From Candidatus Latescibacterota bacterium (GTDB lineage Bacteria > Latescibacterota > UBA2968 > GCA-2709665), in assembly GCA_965208835.1 (NCBI GenBank), contig OZ242358.1:480001-544000 (forward strand): 64,000 nucleotides of DNA. Direction: 5' to 3'. The stretch's first letter is position 1; every line of letters starts with the position of its first letter. The position numbers and the translations under genes were made by a program. Under the pieces are notes generated by a model. The model worked only from the letters and a program-made list of their open reading frames with translations. It did no database searches and was not told where the DNA came from. Below are positions 5,530 to 15,022 of the stretch, one piece after another.

Positions 5530-5757
5530 AGCAGACCTCCTTATATTTGTGAAACTTCGGGACGCTCCGGTTTACCGGGCGTTTTCGGGTAACCGAAACC
5601 CTTCCAACGCTTTTGCGAATACTGAGACCGGTACCGGACAGGATAATAAAGAAAGGAACTGGAATATCGATGTCAAGGGATTTATCGAAAACAGGCGCAT
5701 CATTTGTCTGGCAGTGTTCGGACGGCGCCGATGCCTGAAGTAAAGAAAGAGGCCGCC

Positions 5758-8208
5758 ATGCAATCCCATGCGCGCCTGGTTGTGATCGGCGCCGGCATCG
5801 TTGGCTGCAGCGCGGTCTACCATCTTACGCGAATGGGCTGGAAGGACATTGCGGTCCTGGACCAGGGGCCGCTGTTCGATACCGGCGGCTCGACGTCCCA
5901 CGCGCCGGGGCTGGTCTTCCAGACCAACTTTTCAAAGATGATGACCGGCCTGTCGGGAAAGACCGTTTCGTTGTACAACTCCCTGGACCTGGACGGGGAT
6001 CCCTGTTTTTATCCTGTCGGGAGCTTCGAAGTCGCTTACACCCCCGAACGCTTGGTAGACCTGAAACGCAAACTGGGCGCCGCCAGATCCTGGGAGCTGG
6101 AAGCCCATCTCATGTCGCCTGAAGAGGCCGGATCCAGGCTCCCTCTGCTCGATGCGGATCGGATTCATGGCGCGTACTATGTTCCCTCCGACGGCATCGC
6201 CAAAGCCGTACGCGCCTGCGAGGCAATGGCGCGCGCGTCGGAACCCGGCGCCGCGTTTCACGGTAAAACCACAGTCACCGGTATCGAGGTCGCCAACGGC
6301 ACGGTGAGGGGGGTAAATACCGACCGGGGCCGCATTGCCGCGGACCACGTGTTGATCTGCGCGGGAATCTGGGGCCCTCGCATCGGCCGCATGGCGGGCA
6401 TTTCCATTCCGCTCACCCCTGTGCAGCATCTCTACGCCCTCACCGCGCCGCTGCCGGAACTGGCGGGAGAAACCCGCGAAGTCGTCCATCCCATCCTGCG
6501 CCACCAGGACTCCGCCATGTATTTCCGGCAGCATGGCGACCGGTATGGCATCGGGTCCTACAGACACGAGCCGCTTCTGGTGCGTCCGGACGACCTGGTC
6601 AGCCCGGATGAAGCCAGGCTTTCACCCTCCATCATGGAGTTCACCCCGGAGCACTTCGCGGCGGCTCGCGAAGCGGCGGACGAACTCCTTCCCGCCCTCC
6701 GGAACGCTATGTTCGACTACCGGATCAACGGTCTCTTCTCCTTCACGCCGGATGGGCTGCCCCTTCTCGGAGAGTCCGTTGACGTTCGCGGTCTCTGGGT
6801 TGCGGAGGCCGTGTGGATCACGCATGGCGGCGGCGTCGGGCAGGCCGTTGCGGAATGGATGGATTCCGGCGCGTCCGAAATCGATCTGGGTGACGCCGAC
6901 CTGAACCGCTTCGGTCCGCACGTCCACACCCGGGAATATGTCGAAGCCCGGGGGGCGCAGCAGTACCGCGAGGTGTATGATATCATCCACCCGCTGGAAC
7001 AGATGGACCATCCGCGCGGCCTGCGTGTGAGCCCGTTTCATCCGCGGCTTGAGAAACTCGACGCGGTGTTCTTCGAAAACGCCGGATGGGAGCGCCCGCA
7101 GTGGTTTGGCGCCAATGGCGTCCTGGTGGACGTGGAAGACGACCTGCCATCGCGCGCCGGGTGGGAGGCGCGGTACTGGTCTCCCATCCAGGGTGCGGAA
7201 CACCGGGCCACGAGGCGCGGCGCGGGGCTGTGCGACATCACCCCGTTCACGAAGATCGAAATCGCCGGCGCGGGCGCCATGGATTTTCTGCAGCGCATCG
7301 CCGCCAACCGGATCGACCGGCCGGTTGGAACGGTGATCTATACGGCGCTGCTCAACGCGAGGGGCGGCATTGTCGCCGACCTGACCGTCACCCGCGTGGC
7401 CGCGGACCGGTTCCTGGTTCTCACCGGCGCCGCGTCGGGGATTCGGGATCTGGCGTGGATTTTCCGCCACGCCCGGGATGAACGCGCCGTTCACGTCGCG
7501 GACGTGACCTCCGCCCGTTGCGGCGTGGGCCTCTGGGGGCCCGAAGCCCGAAGGATTCTCCAGCGGGTCTGCGGTGACGATCTGACGAACCGAGCGTTCC
7601 CCTATTTTTCAGCGCGGGAGATCCGGATCGGCGCCGTTCCCGCCCTCGCGCTGCGGCTGTCCTACGTGGGAGAACTGGGTTGGGAGCTCTACGCCCCGGC
7701 TGAATTCGGGCTCCGCCTGTGGGACACGCTCTGGGAGGCCGGCGGCGACCACGGGCTCGTCGCGCTGGGCGGCGGGGCATTCGACTCGCTCCGCCTTGAA
7801 AAGGGATACCGGCTGTGGGGCGCGGATATCCACACGGAGTACAACCCGTATGAAGCCGGCCTCGGATGGGCGGTCAGACTCGATAAGGGCGACTTCACGG
7901 GGCGGGACGCCCTGCTGAGAATCCGGGAAGAGGGAATCCAACGGAAGCTCTGCTGCCTTACCCTGGACGATCCGGAAGCGGTTGTGATGGGCAAGGAACC
8001 CATACTGGACGGCAGCCGCGTTCTCGGGTACGTCACCAGCGCCAATCACGGTTACACCGTCGGCCGATTCATCGCCTATGGCTACCTGCCGCTGGAATAC
8101 GCGCAGCCTGGCACATCCGTGGAAATCGAATACTTCGGCGAACGCAATCCGGCCACGGTCTCGCGCGAACCGCTCTACGACCCCCGCGGGGTGAAAATGA
8201 AATCGTGA
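5758..8208 (+). CDS. Dimethylglycine oxidase/dehydrogenase-like flavoprotein (DAO + GcvT domains)
   Basis: GAGIVG FAD motif, GGSTSHAPGLVFQTN as in dimethylglycine oxidase, and GcvT motifs LSYVGELGWE and SLRLEKGY. Confidence 0.85.
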   Translation: MQSHARLVVIGAGIVGCSAVYHLTRMGWKDIAVLDQGPLFDTGGSTSHAPGLVFQTNFSKMMTGLSGKTVSLYNSLDLDGDPCFYPVGSFEVAYTPERLVDLKRKLGAARSWELEAHLMSPEEAGSRLPLLDADRIHGAYYVPSDGIAKAVRACEAMARASEPGAAFHGKTTVTGIEVANGTVRGVNTDRGRIAADHVLICAGIWGPRIGRMAGISIPLTPVQHLYALTAPLPELAGETREVVHPILRHQDSAMYFRQHGDRYGIGSYRHEPLLVRPDDLVSPDEARLSPSIMEFTPEHFAAAREAADELLPALRNAMFDYRINGLFSFTPDGLPLLGESVDVRGLWVAEAVWITHGGGVGQAVAEWMDSGASEIDLGDADLNRFGPHVHTREYVEARGAQQYREVYDIIHPLEQMDHPRGLRVSPFHPRLEKLDAVFFENAGWERPQWFGANGVLVDVEDDLPSRAGWEARYWSPIQGAEHRATRRGAGLCDITPFTKIEIAGAGAMDFLQRIAANRIDRPVGTVIYTALLNARGGIVADLTVTRVAADRFLVLTGAASGIRDLAWIFRHARDERAVHVADVTSARCGVGLWGPEARRILQRVCGDDLTNRAFPYFSAREIRIGAVPALALRLSYVGELGWELYAPAEFGLRLWDTLWEAGGDHGLVALGGGAFDSLRLEKGYRLWGADIHTEYNPYEAGLGWAVRLDKGDFTGRDALLRIREEGIQRKLCCLTLDDPEAVVMGKEPILDGSRVLGYVTSANHGYTVGRFIAYGYLPLEYAQPGTSVEIEYFGERNPATVSREPLYDPRGVKMKS

Positions 8209-8302
8209 CGGGCTAAACCGGGTGTGCGGGAATAAGGGTACCCGCGAGGGGTGCACGGCGTTACCGAGGCGGGGATCTGTTGTGCCATCGACAGAGAACC
8301 CA

Positions 8303-8488
8303 GGGCACCCACAAGGGGTGCCCCTACGACGTCGTGGTCGGTCGTGGGGGATTGCGTTGGAGAGGTACAGACGAATTCGGGGAACACGTCGAATGGAATC
8401 TTGTACGTTGAATTGAGGACATATGTTGCGATGTCTGACCACCTGGGTGGGATTGTTCCAGGTGTAAGGGCGCCCCTTGTGGGCGCTC
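8303..8488. repeat. Composite REP repeat, copy 1 (inverted REP + 136-bp spacer + REP)
   Basis: GGGCACCCACAAGGGGTGCCCCTAC...GTAAGGGCGCCCCTTGTGGGCGC; spacer homologous to copies 2-4. Confidence 0.9.
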
Positions 8489-8525
8489 TTACGTTTTGCC
8501 ATTGCCGCGCAGTGAAACGCGTTTT

Positions 8526-8570
8526 CAAAAAAGACAGACCCCCTGGGGAAACTGAATCTCCCAGGGGGTC
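8526..8570 (-). terminator. Rho-independent terminator of the RDD gene
   Basis: GACCCCCTGGG...CCCAGGGGGTC stem with a T-run on the minus strand. Confidence 0.75.
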
Positions 8571-8596
8571 ACATGTGTGTTGTCCGGAAATTCGTT

Positions 8597-9058
8597 CTAA
8601 TTCTCCTCGCGATCTTCTTTATTAACGATTATACAACCAGCAATCATATCGTGAAGGGTCTGCTTTCGTTCAGTAAACGCCGCCATAACATAACCAATAT
8701 AGGCAGTCATTCTGGAGATCATCTTTGCAAAATGACGACCGGAAGCTCGCGCAAACGAAATACGGTTTCCCTTGAGATCGGTAACTACAATGCCGAGAGC
8801 CAACTTGCCTAACGTGGCTTGTAGACTGGAAGATTCCATTATGGCATAGTATAGCCAATCAATGGAGAGATAGCAGATCAGGAAGCCGATCATCACAGTA
8901 ACAAAAAATGCATCTCCTGCGAGAAATGCACCCGCCGTACGCGTACCGAAGTCATAGAACCAGGCGCCCAAAGCAGCATATATTCCAGCAAATGTCCCGG
9001 TAATCAACACGTCAACAATAGCTGCTGCAAAACGCTTCCAGAATCTTGCAAGGGTCAT
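8597..9058 (-). CDS. RDD family membrane protein
   Basis: ARFWKRFAAAIVD, QATLGKLALGIVV and QTLHDMIAG motifs; AGGAGG RBS before ATG 9058. Confidence 0.9.
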   Translation of the reverse strand: MTLARFWKRFAAAIVDVLITGTFAGIYAALGAWFYDFGTRTAGAFLAGDAFFVTVMIGFLICYLSIDWLYYAIMESSSLQATLGKLALGIVVTDLKGNRISFARASGRHFAKMISRMTAYIGYVMAAFTERKQTLHDMIAGCIIVNKEDREEN

Positions 9059-9109
9059 CTTTCGCCTCCTGCGGTATCTAACCTTGATTTGTAAGTCTTC
9101 GGGAACGAT

Positions 9110-9272
9110 AATTCGAATATGTGCTTGTAAATAAAGGCGATTAAACGGCGGATTACCAGGATACACCAGGTCACTGGACGTCAAGGGAAAAGACGTCATT
9201 CCATACGTCGATATTGCCCCGTTTAGGAGGGTTTTATCGCGTCGCCGCGTTGCAGTTTTTTTCGGATTGAGG
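9110..9272. repeat. Dispersed 163-bp non-coding repeat, copy A
   Basis: Ungapped similarity to 54247-54409, including an identical GGCGGATTACCAGGATACACCAGGTCA. Confidence 0.85.
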
Positions 9273-9429
9273 ATGATGCCACCTCAAACCACGGTTACCG
9301 TGAGTTTAGACAACAAGGTATCTTCGTTTGTTTCAAGATCAAAACAGCTCCGACACCTGCTGAACCAGGTACCGTCCCGTTCCACGGATCCGACGGAATG
9401 GAAATCCGCAGGATTGACGTCTTAGCGGG

Positions 9430-9465
9430 GACGTCGACGTCATCAGTCCTTGGGAACCGCAGTGA
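9430..9465 (+). pseudogene. Remnant 3' end of a vapC-like gene
   Basis: Encodes DVDVISPWEPQ*; 30/36 nt identical to the end of vapC at 11273-11308 (DVRVINPWERR*). Confidence 0.65.
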
Positions 9466-9480
9466 CCTGGAGAGAAACCA

Positions 9481-9667
9481 GGGCACCCACAAGGGGTGCC
9501 CCTACACCATCACGGTCGGTCGTGGATGAATGAGGAGGAGAGGTACAGGCGAATTGGGGGAACATTCTGCACCGATTGAAATCCGCTGGATTGACAACAA
9601 ATGTTGCGATGTCTAACCACCTGCGCGGAATTGTACGAATTGTAAGGGGCGCCCCTTGTGGGTGCCC
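9481..9667. repeat. Composite REP repeat, copy 2
   Basis: Same architecture as copy 1, with a 136-bp spacer (9506-9641). Confidence 0.9.
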
Positions 9668-9693
9668 GCCTGTCTTTTGCCTCGCTTGAGAGC

Positions 9694-9728
9694 TTGACAT
9701 CGCCCGATAAAGTAATTACTATAATTAC
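9694..9728 (+). promoter_or_regulatory. Sigma70-type promoter with overlapping operator palindrome for the mazEF-like operon
   Basis: TTGACA-17 bp-TACTAT; inverted repeat GTAATTA-CTA-TAATTAC. Confidence 0.65.
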
Positions 9729-9770
9729 ATAACGTCCTTCATAGTTTAAATCCAACCAGAGGTCAGCAAT

Positions 9771-10013
9771 ATGGCAATCCGGGATGTCAAACTTATCGCT
9801 ATTGGCAACTCCAGGGGTATTCGGCTACCGAAAGCTGTGCTGCAGAAATACGGATGGGGAGACTCGCTCGTAATGGAAGAGACCGAACGAGGGATTTTGC
9901 TTTATGGGAAAGAACGTAACAAGCTGTCCTGGAAGGAAACATACCGCGAGATGGCCGCTGAGAATGAAGACTGGAGCGACCTCGATGCGACGATCTCCGA
10001 TGGTCTGGACTGA
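9771..10013 (+). CDS. AbrB/MazE/SpoVT-family antitoxin
   Basis: KLIAIGNSRGIRLPK swapped-hairpin motif; overlaps the toxin start. Confidence 0.9.
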   Translation: MAIRDVKLIAIGNSRGIRLPKAVLQKYGWGDSLVMEETERGILLYGKERNKLSWKETYREMAAENEDWSDLDATISDGLD

Positions 10014-10345
10014 TGTCCACATTTCCCCGCCGATACACGATATATTTGGCCGACCTCAATCCCACCGTCGGTGGAGAAATCCGAAAGGTTCGCCCGGTTG
10101 TGGTCGTCAGTCAGGATGAGATGAACAGGTTTCTGGATACGGTAGTCGTCTGTCCTCTTACCTCGTCGCTCCATCCTCATTGGCGGGCTCGAATGCAGGT
10201 CGAATGTGCAGGCCGAGAGGCTGAGATTGCTGTGGACCAGATTCGCACCATTAGCAAACAGAGACTTAAGCAACGAATTGACAATCTGTTCGCCGACGAA
10301 GCGGCGCAACTCCGCCGCCTCATCACCGAGATGTACGGGGAATAG
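10013..10345 (+). CDS. mazF: PemK/MazF-family endoribonuclease toxin
   Basis: ADLNPTVGGEIRKVRPVVVVS, PLTS and DQIRTISKQRL motifs. Confidence 0.92.
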   Translation: MSTFPRRYTIYLADLNPTVGGEIRKVRPVVVVSQDEMNRFLDTVVVCPLTSSLHPHWRARMQVECAGREAEIAVDQIRTISKQRLKQRIDNLFADEAAQLRRLITEMYGE

Positions 10346-10607
10346 CGACAATCATGGGAAGCTGTGGATTCAACTGGAGCAGTCAACACAGTCGCTCGAA
10401 CTGAGATTGGGGTTCTCCTGCGATATAAGGGCTCGTGTATACCGCAGCGAATCTGACGTAAGAAAATCGGCATGGTCGATTCGTCGACTGGTCTGGCCGG
10501 TCCTCATTGATCGAGGATCGGCTTTTATGTGGTTCTCCTGCACAGACCGCCTTGATTTTAGGATGAACATAGACTATATTGGACTATATCTGTCGAGAGG
10601 AGATAAA

Positions 10608-10892
10608 ATGACCATAGAATATGGCAAGCCAGGCCGGGTCTGGACGGTCGCGGAGGCCAAGGCGCGCCTGTCGGAAGTCCTCCGCCTTTCCGTAGACGAA
10701 GGCCCGCAGCGCATCGGTGTGCGAAGGGGGTACGTTGTGGTGCCGGAGCACGTATGGAAGGCTCAATCGTCACCGCGCAAGCCGCTCGGCCAGTGGTTGA
10801 TCGACAACATGCCGCGCGGCGCGAATCTCGACATTCCTTCCGATCGAATGTCCCGGCGGGAGATCCCGTTCGCCGACGGAGGCGCAGTGTGA
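10608..10892 (+). CDS. Phd/YefM-family antitoxin
   Basis: WTVAEAKARLSEVLR...EGPQRI; GGAG RBS; upstream GACTATAT direct repeat; GTGA overlap with vapC. Confidence 0.85.
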   Translation: MTIEYGKPGRVWTVAEAKARLSEVLRLSVDEGPQRIGVRRGYVVVPEHVWKAQSSPRKPLGQWLIDNMPRGANLDIPSDRMSRREIPFADGGAV

Positions 10893-11308
10893 ACGGGTTT
10901 CTCCTGGATACCAACGTTGTCTCGGAACTGACCAGGGCCGAGCCGGACGGGAACGTTATGGCATTCCTGGCTGCGCATCATGATCTGTGGCTGTCCGCCA
11001 TCGTGGCGCATGAACTGGAATTCGGATTGCAGTTATTGCCTCACGGTCAGCGGCGTGACCTGTTGAGCGCCGCGCTGTCGGGGATCTTCACCGAATACGA
11101 GGACCGTGTCCTTCCTGTCGACAAGGAAGTGGCAGAGTGGGCCGCTGTCTTTCGATCGCAGGCGCATCGAGACGGACGGATGCTGGATCTTGGGGATGCA
11201 CTCATCGCCGGGACCGCCCGGGCCCACGATCTGTCGGTTGCAACCAAAAACATCGCCGACTTCATCGGCCTGGACGTCCGCGTCATCAATCCCTGGGAAC
11301 GGCGGTGA
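10889..11308 (+). CDS. vapC: VapC PIN-domain toxin
   Basis: FLLDTNVVSEL, DALIAGTA, T.N..DF and INPW motifs. Confidence 0.92.
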   Translation: MNGFLLDTNVVSELTRAEPDGNVMAFLAAHHDLWLSAIVAHELEFGLQLLPHGQRRDLLSAALSGIFTEYEDRVLPVDKEVAEWAAVFRSQAHRDGRMLDLGDALIAGTARAHDLSVATKNIADFIGLDVRVINPWERR

Positions 11309-11323
11309 ACAAGAAATAAACCA

Positions 11324-11643
11324 GGGCACCCACAAGGGGTGCCCCTACACCTTCACGGTCGGTCGTGGATGAATGAGGAGGAGAGGTACAGGCGAATTGG
11401 GGGAACATTCCGCACCGATTATCATCCGATGATTTGATAACATATGTTGTAAATCCCAACCACCTGCGCGGAATTCTTCCAATTGTAGGGGTACCCCGTG
11501 TGGGTGCCCGCCTCCCCCGACATCCGTAAAATTACCTGGGAATACACGTTGGTAGGGGCACCCCTTGTGGGTGCCCGCGTGTCTCGACATCCGCATAATT
11601 GCCTGGGACAATACATCCGTAGGGGCGGCCGTTGTGGGCGCCC
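11324..11643. repeat. Composite REP repeat, copy 3, plus two extra tandem REPs
   Basis: 136-bp spacer (11349-11484); plus-strand REPs at 11485, 11552 and 11619, a 67-bp period. Confidence 0.9.
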
Positions 11644-11767
11644 TGCCTTTTTTTGTGCCAACGAATCCTTGACATCATGCAGTAAAGTAACTATATGAAT
11701 TCTGTAGCCGAAAGAATTCAGCAGGGGTCCGCAGAAGTTGCGGGCTAATCCAGTGTATGGAGGAAAT

Positions 11768-12052
11768 ATGATTCGACCAACCGATGTCGAACCGCGAAGC
11801 GGCCACCGAATCTGGCTTCGTTTCTCGGACGGCGCCGCCGGAGAAATCGACCTGTCTGAACTCGCCGGCCGTGGTGTATTCGAGTCCTGGAACAGCCGAA
11901 CCTTCTTTGAGAATGTGCAAATAACGAAGAACGGGGGTGTCGCCTGGGGTAAGGATGTCGAACTGTGTCCGGATGCTCTTTATTTAAAGCTTACCGGCAA
12001 ATCCGTAGAGGATGTAATGCCGGATGTAAAGGCTCTGCTGGAAGATGCCTGA
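11768..12052 (+). CDS. DUF2442-family protein (putative antitoxin)
   Basis: IWLRFSDG..GEIDL, GVF..W, W..DVELCPDALY pattern. Confidence 0.8.
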   Translation: MIRPTDVEPRSGHRIWLRFSDGAAGEIDLSELAGRGVFESWNSRTFFENVQITKNGGVAWGKDVELCPDALYLKLTGKSVEDVMPDVKALLEDA

Positions 12053-12305
12053 GCTCTGCCGCTTCTACGGAATTATCATACGAATATACTTCGACGATCA
12101 CGCACCTCCTCACTTCCACGCAACCTATGGCCAAGAGGAGGCGGTCGTCGGCATTGATAGTTTGACCGTTTTGCAGGGGCGTCTACCGCGTCGGGCTATT
12201 GGGCTGGTTGTGGAGTGGGCGTCACTTTATCAGGACGAGCTACGGCAAGCCTGGATTCGGGCGAAGCGCCTCGAATCGCCGGGAAAGATCGCACCTCTGG
12301 ACTGA
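12045..12305 (+). CDS. DUF4160-family protein (putative toxin)
   Basis: MPELCRFYGIIIRIYFDDHAPPHFHA...VVEWA pattern. Confidence 0.85.
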   Translation: MPELCRFYGIIIRIYFDDHAPPHFHATYGQEEAVVGIDSLTVLQGRLPRRAIGLVVEWASLYQDELRQAWIRAKRLESPGKIAPLD

Positions 12306-12598
12306 TCTGGCGCTACCTTTTCTACACATTTGCCACGATCTTTGTACGTCCGATTTTCGGCAGCTCTGACTTTGCGGCTTCCGCGGGGTTTGCTGACAGG
12401 ACTGCACGGCGGATTCTGGTTGTCTTGTGCGAAGGGGATGTGGACTTGACCCGATTTGGTGGAGCGAGCGCGATGAGGTACGCATTGAGCTTGCCGCATA
12501 ACTGTCGGAGCTATTTTTCTCATACCAGGCAATTGCCAACCGGAAGCCTTCAATTCGTCCCCTACTCCACGCACGTGTACTATATTATCCCGACGATT

Positions 12599-12639
12599 TA
12601 CTCAATACGTTGAGTATTTTTTCTCAATGCATTGAGTAA
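12599..12639. promoter_or_regulatory. Tandem palindromic operator-like sites
   Basis: TACTCAA-TACG-TTGAGTA and CTCAATGCATTGAG, 22 bp apart. Confidence 0.5.
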
Positions 12640-12696
12640 TCCGTCATTTTGGCGTTTGCGAGGCGGAGACCTGTTGTGCCATCGGCATAGAAACGA

Positions 12697-12948
12697 GGGC
12701 ACCCACAAGGGGTGCCCCTACACCATCACGGTCGGTCGTGGATGAATGAGGAGGAGAGGTACAGGCGAATTCGGGGAACATGCCACACAGATTATCATCC
12801 GATGAATTGAGAACGAATGTTTCAATTTCTGACCACCTGCGCGAAATTATCCCGGTCGTAGGGGCGCCCCTTGTGGGCGCCCGCCTGCCTTGACATCCAC
12901 ATAATCGCCTGGGATGTGCATTTGTAGGGGCGTACCTTGTGGGTGCCC
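12697..12948. repeat. Composite REP repeat, copy 4, plus one extra REP
   Basis: 136-bp spacer (12722-12857); REPs at 12858 and 12924. Confidence 0.9.
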
Positions 12949-13106
12949 TGTCTTACCCAGAAACTGGTGAAAATCCTACATGTCGGCACGTTGCTTGCAA
13001 CACCGAAAACAGGTCCACGAGATGATTGGATTTGCAGGAACGCCCCATGTAGCCGCCACAGCGAAAACCTGGTCAAACCCGAGGGTCGCCCTTTCACGGG
13101 AGAATC

Positions 13107-13715
13107 GTGTACGATCCGGAAATCCACCATCGCCGGTCGATGAGACTGAAGGGATACGACTATTCACAGGCAGGGGCGTACCTTGTAACTGTTGTCGCAC
13201 AGGGCCGGATGACGCTGTTTGGCGACGTGGTTAAAGGTCGGATGCAGTTGAACCCGGCCGGAGAAATGGTCCAACGAATATGGATTGAAATGCCTACTCG
13301 ATTCCCACCAATCGTTATCGACACATTTGTCGTCATGCCAAACCACTTACATGGAATCATCATTCTGGCAGGTGTGGACCTTGCGGGCACCCCAAATACC
13401 AACGAATGTTCGGACGTCGATATAAAAACCAGGGGAACAACATGGGTCGCCCCTACAGAGGATGGTCGCACAAGACTGGGGAATGTGGTCGGCGTATTTA
13501 AATCACTGACAACGTTGGGATATACGCGTGGCGTGCGCGATATGAACTGGCCGCCGTTCCACCGACGGTTGTGGCAGCGGAACTTCTACGAACATATCGT
13601 TCGGACCGACGCGTCATTACAGAAATATCGCAAGTATATTGTCGACAATCCCGTACAATGGCCATTTGACCGGGAGAACCCGAGGGCCGCAAGTCCCATG
13701 TTGCATTCGCCATAA
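13107..13715 (+). mobile_element. rayT: REP-associated tyrosine transposase (RAYT, HUH/Y1, IS200-like)
   Basis: RRSMRLKGYDYS, VMPNHLHGII (HUH), WQRNFYEHIVR and YIVDNP motifs; flanked by GTAG REPs. Confidence 0.9.
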
Positions 13716-13754
13716 TCATCGATATTCCGGCTATCGCCTCAATACGCGCAACCA

Positions 13755-13992
13755 GGGCACCCACAAGGGGCGCCCCTACACGGTACGGGGTATACAATTT
13801 TCGACCAGATCGGATGAACGAATGAAATTGTAGGGGCGTCCCTCGTGGGCGCCCGTCCTTCCAGGATGCAAACGTCGCCACCACGAAAACCAGGGCACCC
13901 ACAAGGGGTGCCCCTACACGGAACGTGTAATACAATTACCAACCGGATCGTATGGATGATTGAAATTGCAGGGGCGTCCCTTGCGGGCGCAC
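13755..13992. repeat. BIME-like REP cluster downstream of RAYT (4 REPs, two 138-bp units)
   Basis: REPs at 13755, 13830, 13893 and 13968; the two 50-bp spacers are homologous. Confidence 0.9.
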
Positions 13993-14032
13993 GGTCTTCC
14001 GATTATCTTTTTTGAAAAACGGAGAAATTTCG

Positions 14033-15022
14033 ATGCCCGAATCGATATTGGAAAGACTGAATGAGGGGGTGGTGCTGGGGGACGGGGGGTACCTGCTCGC
14101 CCTGGAGAACCGGGGCTACGTTCAGGCCGGGCCGTTCACGCCGGAAGTGACGATTGAGAATCCCAACGCGCTTCTGGCCCTGCACGAGGAATTCGTGCAC
14201 GCCGGCGCGGAGGTGCTGCAGGTACTCACGTTCTACGCCAGCGAAAACAAGCTGGCGCAGACCGGCTACGCGGGGAGGCTGGAAGAGATCAACCGCGCGG
14301 CCGTCAGGATCGCCCGCGAGGCCGCGGCCGGCAAGGCCTTGGTGGCCGGAAATATCTGTCTCACGTGGAAGTACCCCGAATCCGAGGACGAATGCCGGCG
14401 GCTGTTTGACACCCAACTCGGCTACCAGATGGCCGAAGGCGTCGACTTCATCATCGGCGAGACGTTCCTCCACGTGGGCGAGGCTCTCATCGCCCTCGAA
14501 TGTGCCCGAAAAACCGGCCTGCCCGCGGTGATCACAATGGCATTCGAAGGCCCCGAGACGCGGGACGGAAAAACTCCGGGTGAGGCCGCGCGCATGCTGG
14601 AGGGCGCGGGCGCCGACGTCGTGGGCGCAAACTGCTGGCAGGATCCCACTTTCATGCTCCCCGCCATCGAGCAGATGCGAGAGGCGGTAACCTGCCACGT
14701 GGCCGCCCAGCCGGTCGCCTATCGATGCACGCCCGAAGTGCCCTTCTTCACCGGCCAGCCGGGCTTTCCGGACAAGCTCGATTCGTTCAAGATCAGCCGC
14801 TACGAAATGGGCGATTTCGCCCGCAAAGCCTTGGACCTCGGCGTGAATTTTATCGGCGGTTGCTGCGGCTGCGAGGGTTCGCACGTCCGCCAGATGGCGC
14901 GCGCAATCGGCAAGATGCCCGCTGAAGAGCGCGAATGGGACGCGGACTACGGGAAACCCCAGTCGGCGACAGAAGCGTACAGAGATATCCGGGAGCAGTC
15001 CGGCGCCGCTCCCGGGGGATAA
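14033..15022 (+). CDS. Betaine-homocysteine S-methyltransferase-like protein
   Basis: ILERLNEGVVLGDGG...RGYVQAGPFTPE...TFYASENKL is BHMT-like; GANC and GGCCG Zn ligands. Confidence 0.85.
   Translation: MPESILERLNEGVVLGDGGYLLALENRGYVQAGPFTPEVTIENPNALLALHEEFVHAGAEVLQVLTFYASENKLAQTGYAGRLEEINRAAVRIAREAAAGKALVAGNICLTWKYPESEDECRRLFDTQLGYQMAEGVDFIIGETFLHVGEALIALECARKTGLPAVITMAFEGPETRDGKTPGEAARMLEGAGADVVGANCWQDPTFMLPAIEQMREAVTCHVAAQPVAYRCTPEVPFFTGQPGFPDKLDSFKISRYEMGDFARKALDLGVNFIGGCCGCEGSHVRQMARAIGKMPAEEREWDADYGKPQSATEAYRDIREQSGAAPGG

Follow-up and report, generated by a model that had tools for sequence, protein, structure and literature searches.

A putative subclass 2.4 REPtron in a collinear toxin–antitoxin and defence island of a Candidatus Latescibacterota genome

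Introduction

The region between a dimethylglycine-oxidase-type (DMGO) gene and a homocysteine S-methyltransferase (BHMT) gene in the genome of Candidatus Latescibacterota bacterium raises the question of whether a REP-associated tyrosine transposase (RAYT, also called TnpA_REP) can assemble gene cassettes in the manner of an integron. The region lies in a window of 64,000 nucleotides (nt), by which we mean the whole stretch of DNA that was analysed (positions 480001–544000 of contig OZ242358.1, part of a single 5.18-Mb contig, 59.5% G+C). It holds eight small genes recognised with Pfam and NCBIfam models, among them three predicted toxin–antitoxin (TA) pairs and a RAYT gene, and it carries four composite repeats built of repetitive extragenic palindromic (REP) hairpins. 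Integron and superintegron cassette arrays can be rich in TA genes, and an earlier note on this DNA had proposed that the RAYT may recognise the REP hairpins and move the blocks between them as single-stranded cassettes, building a TA array without an IntI integrase or attC sites. If true, this would be a new way of assembling gene cassettes.

We have compared the present genome (G000) with 14 further genomes of the same genus (G001–G014), and our analyses favour another explanation, to which we assign a probability of roughly 0.7. The region would be a REPtron (a RAYT gene with its REPs) of TnpA_REP subclass 2.4 at the BHMT-proximal end of an old, collinear, vertically inherited and decaying TA/defence island, in which REP doublets formed from RAYT gene fragments, confined to this locus, mark many, not all, of the deletion and replacement junctions. 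The evidence is thus for known things in a little-studied phylum, namely a subclass 2.4 REPtron, a decaying hotspot island of TA and defence genes, and repeats that mark recombination junctions.

Composite Repeats and Their Likely Origin

A repeat search of the window found one family of direct repeats, present in four copies of 224 nt that start at 8297, 9475, 11318 and 12691. Each copy consists of a REP in (+) orientation, a 134-nt spacer and a REP in (−) orientation, with 161–162 nt from start to start, and so has the inverted-doublet form of the elements known as REPINs. The REP hairpin combines an 8-bp stem and a 5-nt loop with a GTAG foot, and the 25-nt REP(+) core GGGCACCCACAAGGGGTGCCCCTAC, which begins at 8303, 9481, 11324 and 12697 (the positions by which the earlier note had located the repeats), is the same in all four copies. 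This core has 12 matches in the window at no more than 3 mismatches, compared with none in 100 shuffles. The four copies had been called near-identical; their number holds, and the term overstates their likeness, the composites being 67–85% identical to the reference copy over 224 nt. The repeats and the RAYT gene are located as follows, by window position.

8297–8520, (+) strand: composite 1, with REP(+) at 8303–8327, a RAYT-fragment spacer and REP(−) at 8464–8488; the most diverged copy
9475–9698, (+) strand: composite 2, with REP(+) at 9481–9505, spacer and REP(−) at 9643–9667
11318–11643, (+) strand: composite 3, with REP(+) at 11324–11348, spacer, REP(−) at 11485–11509 and two more REP(−)
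11552–11576 and 11619–11643: the two extra REP(−) after composite 3, with a 67-nt period
12691–12948, (+) strand: composite 4, with REP(+) at 12697–12721, spacer and REP(−) at 12858–12882, directly 5' of the RAYT gene
12924–12948: extra REP(−) after composite 4
13107–13715, (+) strand: RAYT (TnpA_REP) gene, 202 aa, with HUH residues 80–82 and Tyr 161; NCBIfam NF047646
13365–13389: REP-like sequence in the RAYT reading frame, REP(−) orientation, residues 87–94, after the HUH motif
13432–13456: REP-like sequence in the RAYT reading frame, REP(+) orientation
13755–13992, (+) strand: two short REP doublets 3' of the RAYT gene, 13755(+)/13830(−) and 13893(+)/13968(−), of a type that is also dispersed in the genome

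The spacer of the composites points to their source. In tblastn searches the spacer of composite 3 aligns to RAYT residues 52–94 with 42% identity, including the NHL-G of the HUH motif, a copy in G014 aligns to residues 50–94, and three tandem copies just 5' of the RAYT gene of G008 align to residues 58–121 (E 3e-5 to 7e-6 in a 215-kb database of all islands). In composite 3 the frame lacks a start codon and is interrupted by a stop ahead of the aligned part. The REP(−) of the composite corresponds to the in-gene REP-like sequence at 13365–13389, and its REP(+) with the left flank corresponds to in-gene positions 13407–13457 (repeat families D2, D6 and D11). Since the REPs of the composite match those within the gene and the spacer aligns to the RAYT, the composite is a rearranged and decayed piece of the RAYT gene bounded by REPs, its spacer representing approximately codons 50–94 with the HUH motif.

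The composite is also restricted in its distribution. The REP hairpin occurs at 78 sites in the genome at no more than 4 mismatches, with compensatory stem variants, and these dispersed REPs are mostly single or in doublets 75–80 nt apart; a degenerate REP pattern finds 93 sites in 62 clusters, 14 of the sites being in the island. The 134-nt spacer has four matches in the genome, all in the island, and its 20 matches in relatives are all at the same locus (in 7 of the 21 whole genomes searched). The scattering of the composite over the genome that would have counted against the earlier proposal was hence not observed. A reading of the composite itself as a genome-wide REPIN was rejected, the spacer being confined to one locus and only the short doublets of 75–80 nt being dispersed. 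From their sequence, the four composites appear to be locus-confined REP doublets, not dedicated cassette recombination sites.

Other arrangements of the REPs were also seen. REP(−) units form head-to-tail tandem arrays with a 66–67-nt period, with three units at 11485–11643 in the window, four in G009, and, in G006, five units 5' of the RAYT gene and four more before BHMT. Elsewhere in G000 (4465682–4474843; loci L153–L156), four single REP(+) lie approximately 3 kb apart, each adjoining a WD40-repeat gene, which suggests a tandemly repeated unit of gene and REP.

The RAYT Gene and Its In-Frame REPs

The RAYT matches NCBIfam model NF047646 in two stretches (E 1.2e-15, 57.6 bits), and its score is below the curated cutoff of 80 because an insert splits the match. 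Pfam Y1_Tnp gave no match for it at E 0.01, and the E. coli TnpA_REP structure (PDB 4er8) matches residues 153–185 at E 0.007; the top PDB match, a designed repeat protein, was set aside as spurious because it arises through the low-complexity insert. In an alignment with 77 relatives, H80 and H82, the MPN motif and W156 are present in 78 of 78 sequences, Q157 in 77 and Y161 in 73, and the RAYT of the window has all of these conserved residues of the HUH and Tyr contexts. The gene has the hairpins expected on its flanks, with REP(−) at 12858 and 12924 on the 5' side and REP(+) at 13755 on the 3' side, and such hairpins are also dispersed in the genome.

The two REP-like sequences in the RAYT frame lie between the HUH and Tyr motifs, and the orthologues in G011, G002 and G006 also carry in-frame REP-like sequences. 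A paralogue in the same genome (P2) uses a different REP and carries it, in near-perfect form, in frame after the HUH motif. Among 77 loci of RAYT relatives, the open reading frame (ORF) shares a stretch with its own flanks in 53, and in 49 of those 53 the stretch lies 12–54 codons after the HUH motif. These shared stretches (loci L029–L108) are 12–114 nt long and often 100% identical, extending the in-frame cognate REP to Nostoc, Chloroflexota, Poribacteria, Acidobacteriota, Brocadia and others. Quentin et al. (2018, PMC6006769) describe a REP in frame between the HUH and Tyr motifs as the distinguishing feature of TnpA_REP subclass 2.4, and the in-gene REP is hence already known from that description and is not new here. 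The present RAYT would belong to subclass 2.4, an assignment made from the in-frame REP and the taxonomic spread, not from the published tree.

The genome has two further RAYT paralogues (at 3110099–3110605 and 4005867–4006388, loci L169 and L170), which are 35–40% identical and use a different REP. They share a second, perfectly palindromic REP family, whose 14-mer is present 40 times. P2 lies between the hsdS-like and hsdM genes of a type I restriction-modification system, the other paralogue lies among ordinary genes, and paralogue P3 matches Pfam Y1_Tnp at E 2.6e-5. No TA-type array was seen among the ORFs of at least 90 aa at these two loci.

The Island in Related Genomes

The genes that flank and fill the island in the window, together with their promoter-like sequences, are listed below.

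5704–8208: DMGO-type gene (Pfam), left flank of the island
8597–9199, (−) strand: RDD-family membrane protein gene, Pfam E 1e-23
9079–9278: dispersed repeat of approximately 195–200 nt, resembling a miniature inverted-repeat transposable element, inserted in G000 only, at the 5' end of the RDD gene
9694–9722, (+) strand: promoter-like TTGACA-17-TACTAT (10/12 promoter match), just 3' of REP(−) and 5' of mazE
9771–10013, (+) strand: mazE-like gene, Pfam 24.6 bits at a cutoff of 24.7
10013–10345, (+) strand: mazF/PemK gene, Pfam E 4e-26, in an operon (9771–10345) with the mazE-like gene
10608–10892, (+) strand: Phd-like antitoxin gene, weak Pfam match, E 0.003
10889–11308, (+) strand: PIN/VapC toxin gene, Pfam E 1e-13, overlapping the Phd-like gene by 4 nt, GTGA
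11577–11735, (+) strand: leader with promoter-like TTGACATCAT...TAAAGTAACTATATGA
11668–11693: paralogous promoter copy, in repeat family D8 with the promoter at 9694–9722
11768–12052, (+) strand: DUF2442 gene (DhiA-like model), Pfam/NCBIfam
12045–12305, (+) strand: DUF4160 gene (DhiT model, E 3e-21), Pfam/NCBIfam
14012–15022: BHMT gene (Pfam), right flank of the island

The adjacent small pairs MazE/MazF, Phd-like/PIN and DUF2442/DUF4160 have the form of type II TA modules, the toxins being predicted from profile matches. Pfam and NCBIfam bear out the division by composites into blocks of RDD, MazEF with Phd/VapC, DUF2442 with DUF4160, and RAYT, and, as had been claimed, every block is bounded in the same way as the RAYT gene, by a GTAG-hairpin REP(−) on the left and a hairpin-CTAC REP(+) on the right. 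MazEF and Phd/VapC form a single block, with no REP between the two operons.

The DMGO–BHMT interval was taken from the 14 other genomes and mapped by tblastn with 22 proteins and by REP positions. According to named relatives of the RAYT, the genus falls in Candidatus Latescibacterota; none of the genomes searched exceeds 98% identity to G000, and the nearest is 94% identical over the final 250 DMGO residues. DMGO is present in all 15 island stretches and BHMT in 11, the others ending at contig ends (G003, G005) or not reaching it (G002, G012). An island of 5–23 kb with TA and defence genes occupies the interval in all 15 genomes, and its parts follow one framework: on the left DMGO, (REP doublet), RDD, (doublet), (MazEF), Phd/VapC, (doublet); next (MazE2 or nucleotidyltransferase-like), (DUF2442), (Fic), (AAA_21 and DUF4276), an MmeI-type restriction-modification enzyme and further large genes; and on the right DUF6978, DUF1828/1829, AAA_14/DUF4143, (REP doublets, RAYT, REP doublets) and BHMT. 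Phd/VapC is present in 15 of 15 genomes and is the core module; RDD is found in 8, MazEF in 5, the RAYT gene in 5 (G000, G011, G002, G008 and G006), DUF2442 in 4, and DUF4160 in G000 only. The order of shared modules is nearly always kept, and the differences are mostly of presence and absence, which we read as deletions or replacements within one framework. Content thus varies at a nearly fixed order, which is not the reshuffling of both that an integron would give; the identical cargo in identical order that the earlier note had named as contrary evidence was found for the order of the shared modules, not for the cargo.

REPs occur only in the left TA part and at the right REPtron end of the islands, and the central cargo between them is REP-free over 13.8 kb in G002, 11.8 kb in G008, 14.6 kb in G004 and 9.4 kb in G006. 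A repeat site for every cassette is hence missing both here and within the MazEF–Phd/VapC block. The cargo families include MmeI-type restriction-modification enzymes (927–938 aa), Fic/DOC, SIR2_2, AAA_21/AAA_15 with DUF4276, C-5 methylase, HATPase_c_3, DUF6978, DUF1828/1829 and AAA_14/DUF4143, and this variable defence cargo between conserved flanking core genes is the arrangement of a defence hotspot. Central defence cargo was seen in G002, G008, G004, G006, G010, G013, G001, G014 and G012 (loci L015–L023 and L027), G002 also having large ORFs of 467 and 1369 aa without a Pfam match. The islands of G000 (5.8 kb), G011, G009 and G007 are short and without most of the central cargo. The island of G000 would be a shrunken form of the 15–23 kb islands of relatives, from which the central restriction-modification, Fic and ATPase cargo has been lost.

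Signs of decay were seen in several islands. The vapC homologue of G007 (L025:2523–2940) is in two overlapping pieces (residues 1–39 and 33–139) and is probably frameshifted. In several relatives only the antitoxin gene of a pair, mazE-like or nucleotidyltransferase-like, survives and no intact toxin gene accompanies it, and decay of the TA modules is therefore indicated. REP doublets beside BHMT persist in G013 and G001, which have no RAYT gene. The view that the TA genes predate the REPs, raised by a seeming lack of REPs in G010, was dropped, for G010 and G013 keep a half-REP after vapC. The distant G014 keeps a full composite at that position, and both the TA genes and the REPs seem to be ancestral to the genus.

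Junctions at and away from REPs

Breakpoints were taken from chained pairwise blastn matches and pooled within 12 nt, and those within 15 nt of a REP were counted as being at a REP. G000 has 42 distinct breakpoints, of which 20 are at REPs (6.4 expected under a uniform null), and for intergenic DNA the count is 20 of 38 (11.0 expected; binomial p about 0.002, which is no true probability, as breakpoints are non-independent and matches are apt to stop at a conserved repeat). In 12 islands taken together, 135 of 518 breakpoints are at REPs, where a uniform null predicts 35. Many of the junctions left by deletion or replacement fall on REPs or composites. Among these are both edges of the RDD block (8468–8514 and 9433–9475), the left edge of MazEF (9638–9645; at REP(−) in three comparisons) and the end of the VapC block (11331–11349). 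Composites bound the RDD block, which is missing from G002, where one composite is left. Junction sequences show a composite collapsed to a single hybrid hairpin in G002; in G011 and G012 the REP(+) is interrupted or chimeric, and in G010 and G013 a half-REP is fused to a truncated mazE.

Other junctions lie away from REPs. The right edge of MazEF falls at 10349–10494, with VapBC block starts at 10451–10633. The left edge of the DUF2442 block is at 11735–11756, approximately 155 nt 3' of a REP(−) and at the start codon of the replaced gene, and its right edge is at 12048–12079. The leader at 11577–11735, joined here to the DUF2442 gene, stands before mazE2 or a nucleotidyltransferase-like gene in relatives. 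The right-hand block starts at 12459–12588, 100–230 nt before composite 4. The claim that cargo varies at precise repeat boundaries hence stands in part, cargo being variable and about half of the breakpoints being at REPs, and fails for both DUF2442 edges and for the right edge of MazEF.

The junctions of the G000-specific repeat at 9079–9278 are likewise not at REPs, and this repeat is outside the REP system. It has 88 blastn matches in the genome (61 near full length at approximately 93–95% identity) and many copies in genomes of the same genus, and its empty site was seen in G009, G011, G006, G005 and one metagenome contig (run X5). The first 40 or so codons of the 200-aa RDD ORF derive from the insertion, relatives aligning to residues 41–200 only.

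Sequencing data were covered as assembled contigs of four runs, none on record as RNA; 5 of the 21 runs listed contain at least half of the sampled words of the stretch. In the likely source sample (X1) contigs break at REPs. Joints that skip part of the region have sides of 18–57 nt inside REPs or come from related strains, and related-strain arrangements in other samples include RAYT-less and MazEF-less forms and the empty site of the 195-nt repeat.

Spread of the Repeats

A tree of 30 long doublets contains both positional and within-genome clusters. Composite 1 falls together with copies on the DMGO side in G002 and G005, composite 3 falls with the copy that follows VapC in G006, and three copies of G002 form a cluster of their own. 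Both vertical inheritance and local copying or conversion are therefore indicated. Window positions 9429–10033 are 69.6% identical over 632 nt to the second composite and mazE2 of G008, and MazE2 is 63–79% identical to MazE. Composite 2 with the mazE promoter and mazE is thus paralogous to the post-VapC composite with mazE2, and at least two of the four composites have therefore moved within an older segmental duplication.

These observations are consistent with a history in which RAYT fragments arose by rearrangement within the REPtron and then reached other sites within a few kilobases through segmental duplication, gene conversion or the RAYT acting locally, composites 2 and 3 at least having moved with a duplicated unit of composite, promoter and mazE. 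Homologous or microhomology recombination would account for the junctions at REPs, to which cleavage of GTAG hairpins by the RAYT is a possible, unproven contributor. The long doublets, which keep a RAYT piece bounded by an in-gene REP, may then be a snapshot of how REP doublets form from a REPtron.

RAYT and REP Neighbourhoods Elsewhere

The earlier note had also suggested looking for RAYT, repeat and TA genes together in other genomes, and a general link of this kind found no support in the neighbourhoods of RAYT relatives or of REPs elsewhere in the genome. Pfam tallies over these mixed ORF sets give the 25 commonest families. The RAYT relatives of other phyla (29 loci) have 126 ORFs within 1.8 kb, and in the list of 25 families for these ORFs no TA family has two or more members. 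In the corresponding list for the 119 ORFs nearest to 60 REP sites in the rest of the genome, which is filled by WD40 synonyms with four members each, no TA family stands out. The size of these 119 ORFs, with a median of 360 aa and 15 of 119 at 160 aa or less, is a firmer figure than the family tally. Our literature searches on RAYTs, REPINs, REPs and TA genes turned up no report of RAYT-driven cassette arrays. Two precedents in E. coli were found in which REPs or REPtrons share variable loci with TA genes, as described in PMC3184786 and PMC3333891.

Alternative Explanations

An integron-like RAYT is one alternative, and the enrichment of breakpoints at REPs would also fit RAYT-driven cassette exchange. 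The proposal can further draw on the variable cargo, on the RDD block, bounded by composites and missing from G002, on the left edge of MazEF, on the confinement of the composite to the one locus that holds this RAYT, and on the intact HUH and Tyr motifs of the enzyme. The same 15 genomes show no permutation of TA modules, however, and cargo runs of 9–14.6 kb contain no REP, one block holds two operons, and neither edge of the DUF2442 block nor the right edge of MazEF is at a REP. The composites are RAYT pseudogene fragments, part of the array is attributable to segmental duplication, and RAYT-less islands carry the same kinds of cargo; the neighbourhoods of RAYT relatives and the two paralogue loci, described above, add no further array of this type. 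We therefore regard capture, excision or shuffling of REP-flanked cassettes by the RAYT as decidedly improbable: individual events such as that of the RDD block leave the model some room, and it is without a site per cassette, a reshuffled order or a demonstrated activity. A related idea is that the REPtron is a recombination engine acting in cis, in which the RAYT cleaves GTAG hairpins, that within its own gene among them, and transfers strands there, so making the RAYT-fragment doublets and driving duplication, deletion and replacement of adjacent TA and defence modules; it would then be not an integron but a local diversifier derived from a transposase, and an HUH Y1 enzyme would shape the turnover of a defence island. 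RAYT-bearing genomes tend to have more composites, as this idea would predict, although the trend is confounded by relatedness, and ordinary recombination between repeats explains the REP-associated deletions equally well. We consider such an engine unlikely. Several of these points weigh against the history that we prefer: the enrichment at REPs, the composite numbers of RAYT-bearing genomes, the confinement to the RAYT locus, and the within-genome cluster of the doublet tree, according to which copying or conversion was not only ancient. Collinearity has its own weak spots, as Fic is on one side of the AAA_21/DUF4276 pair in G010 and on the other in G014, and G012 departs from the regular pattern. 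Relatives were mapped by tblastn of selected proteins and from lists of non-nested ORFs; ORF calling in them was crude, and small genes may have been missed.

The placement of the repeats could instead result from selection for insulated expression, with REP hairpins as terminators or stabilisers of mRNA 3' ends and the sequence 3' of REP(−) as the promoter of the next operon. REP(+) begins 16 nt after the vapC stop codon, the 10/12 promoter match at 9694–9722 directly follows a REP(−), and REP(−) with its leader (11552–11731) is kept at 86–91% identity in four relatives before different genes; Di Nocera et al. (2013) also report that most REPs are found 3' of coding regions. The REP hairpins with their T-rich tails score as terminator-like on the minus strand (15 sites in the region compared with 6.4 +/- 2.4 in shuffles), but for REP(+) the operons are on the other strand, the number of promoter-like sites shows no excess (8 vs 5.2 +/- 2.2), and the spacer is a decaying coding fragment, not a conserved regulatory RNA; a search of the composites with Rfam gave only two chance-level matches to the ylbH leader, in composites 2 and 3 (E 0.06–0.075, 24 bits vs a cutoff of 50). 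As a full account of the locus regulatory punctuation is unlikely, and a regulatory role of REP and promoter units may coexist with the preferred history. The suggestion that the whole DMGO–BHMT island is, or once was, a single REP-bounded mobile unit, a REPtron with passenger genes inserted whole, gains something from REP doublets that adjoin both flanking genes in most genomes, including the RAYT-less G013, G001 and G003. It is very improbable, however, given that all 15 genomes of the genus have the island at this locus and no empty site was seen, and given that REPtrons are described as not transposing as units (PMC6006769, PMC3333891). In a genome of another genus (G015) the TA homologues are approximately 250 kb from the BHMT homologue, which may also count against it. 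A decaying, vertically inherited island with a REPtron at one end hence remains the explanation that we favour. With about half of its junctions at REPs, the island is a defined place in which any effect of a RAYT on adjacent DNA in vivo might be observed.

Comparison with Known Systems

The locus most closely recalls the E. coli REPtron, in which tnpA_REP lies between yafL and fhiA, and where REP and bacterial interspersed mosaic element numbers vary and tnpA_REP can be lost with its REPs kept or hicAB TA genes be present instead (Ton-Hoang et al., 2012, PMC3333891). Shared with it are a RAYT gene that is present once and at a fixed place in the chromosome, GTAG REPs and doublets that flank the gene in varying number and are locally amplified, loss of the RAYT with REPs kept (in G009, G013 and G001), and TA genes at the locus, which in E. 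coli are hicAB in strains without the REPtron. The present locus differs in that the REPtron and several TA and defence genes share it, in that REP doublets extend 5 kb into the island, and in that the long doublets have a RAYT pseudogene fragment as spacer. According to Quentin et al. (2018, PMC6006769), subclass 2.4 occurs across Cyanobacteria and in scattered phyla, and the present system resembles it in its in-frame REPs between the HUH and Tyr motifs, its moderate REP copy number and its relatives from Nostoc, Chloroflexota, Poribacteria and others; unlike subclass 2.4 as described there, gene fragments bounded by the internal REPs appear to have been copied outside the gene.

With REPINs (Bertels and Rainey, 2011, PMC3116915, PMC3337134) the locus shares two inverted REPs around a spacer and the association with a single-copy RAYT, as these elements are described, and its short doublets with 75–80-nt spacing are dispersed in the genome. 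The 161-nt composites, unlike REPINs, are not dispersed, all lying in one 5-kb locus with 67–85% identity and a spacer of coding origin. Integron and superintegron arrays resemble the locus in that structured repeats stand between small TA operons and one end is occupied by a recombinase gene. The differences are that no site accompanies each cassette, order is not permuted, inheritance is collinear and vertical, the repeats are pseudogene fragments, and the recombinase is an HUH Y1 enzyme whose activity on cassettes is not demonstrated. A further parallel is the variable folA–apaH region of E. coli, in which the ccdO157 TA genes decay or are absent and REPs are suspected of promoting plasticity (Delihas, 2011, PMC3184786, summarising Mine et al., 2009). 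Both regions have a variable TA content between two conserved metabolic genes and REPs in the variable part; the folA–apaH region has one TA pair and no RAYT, whereas the present locus is a multi-gene island that includes the RAYT itself.

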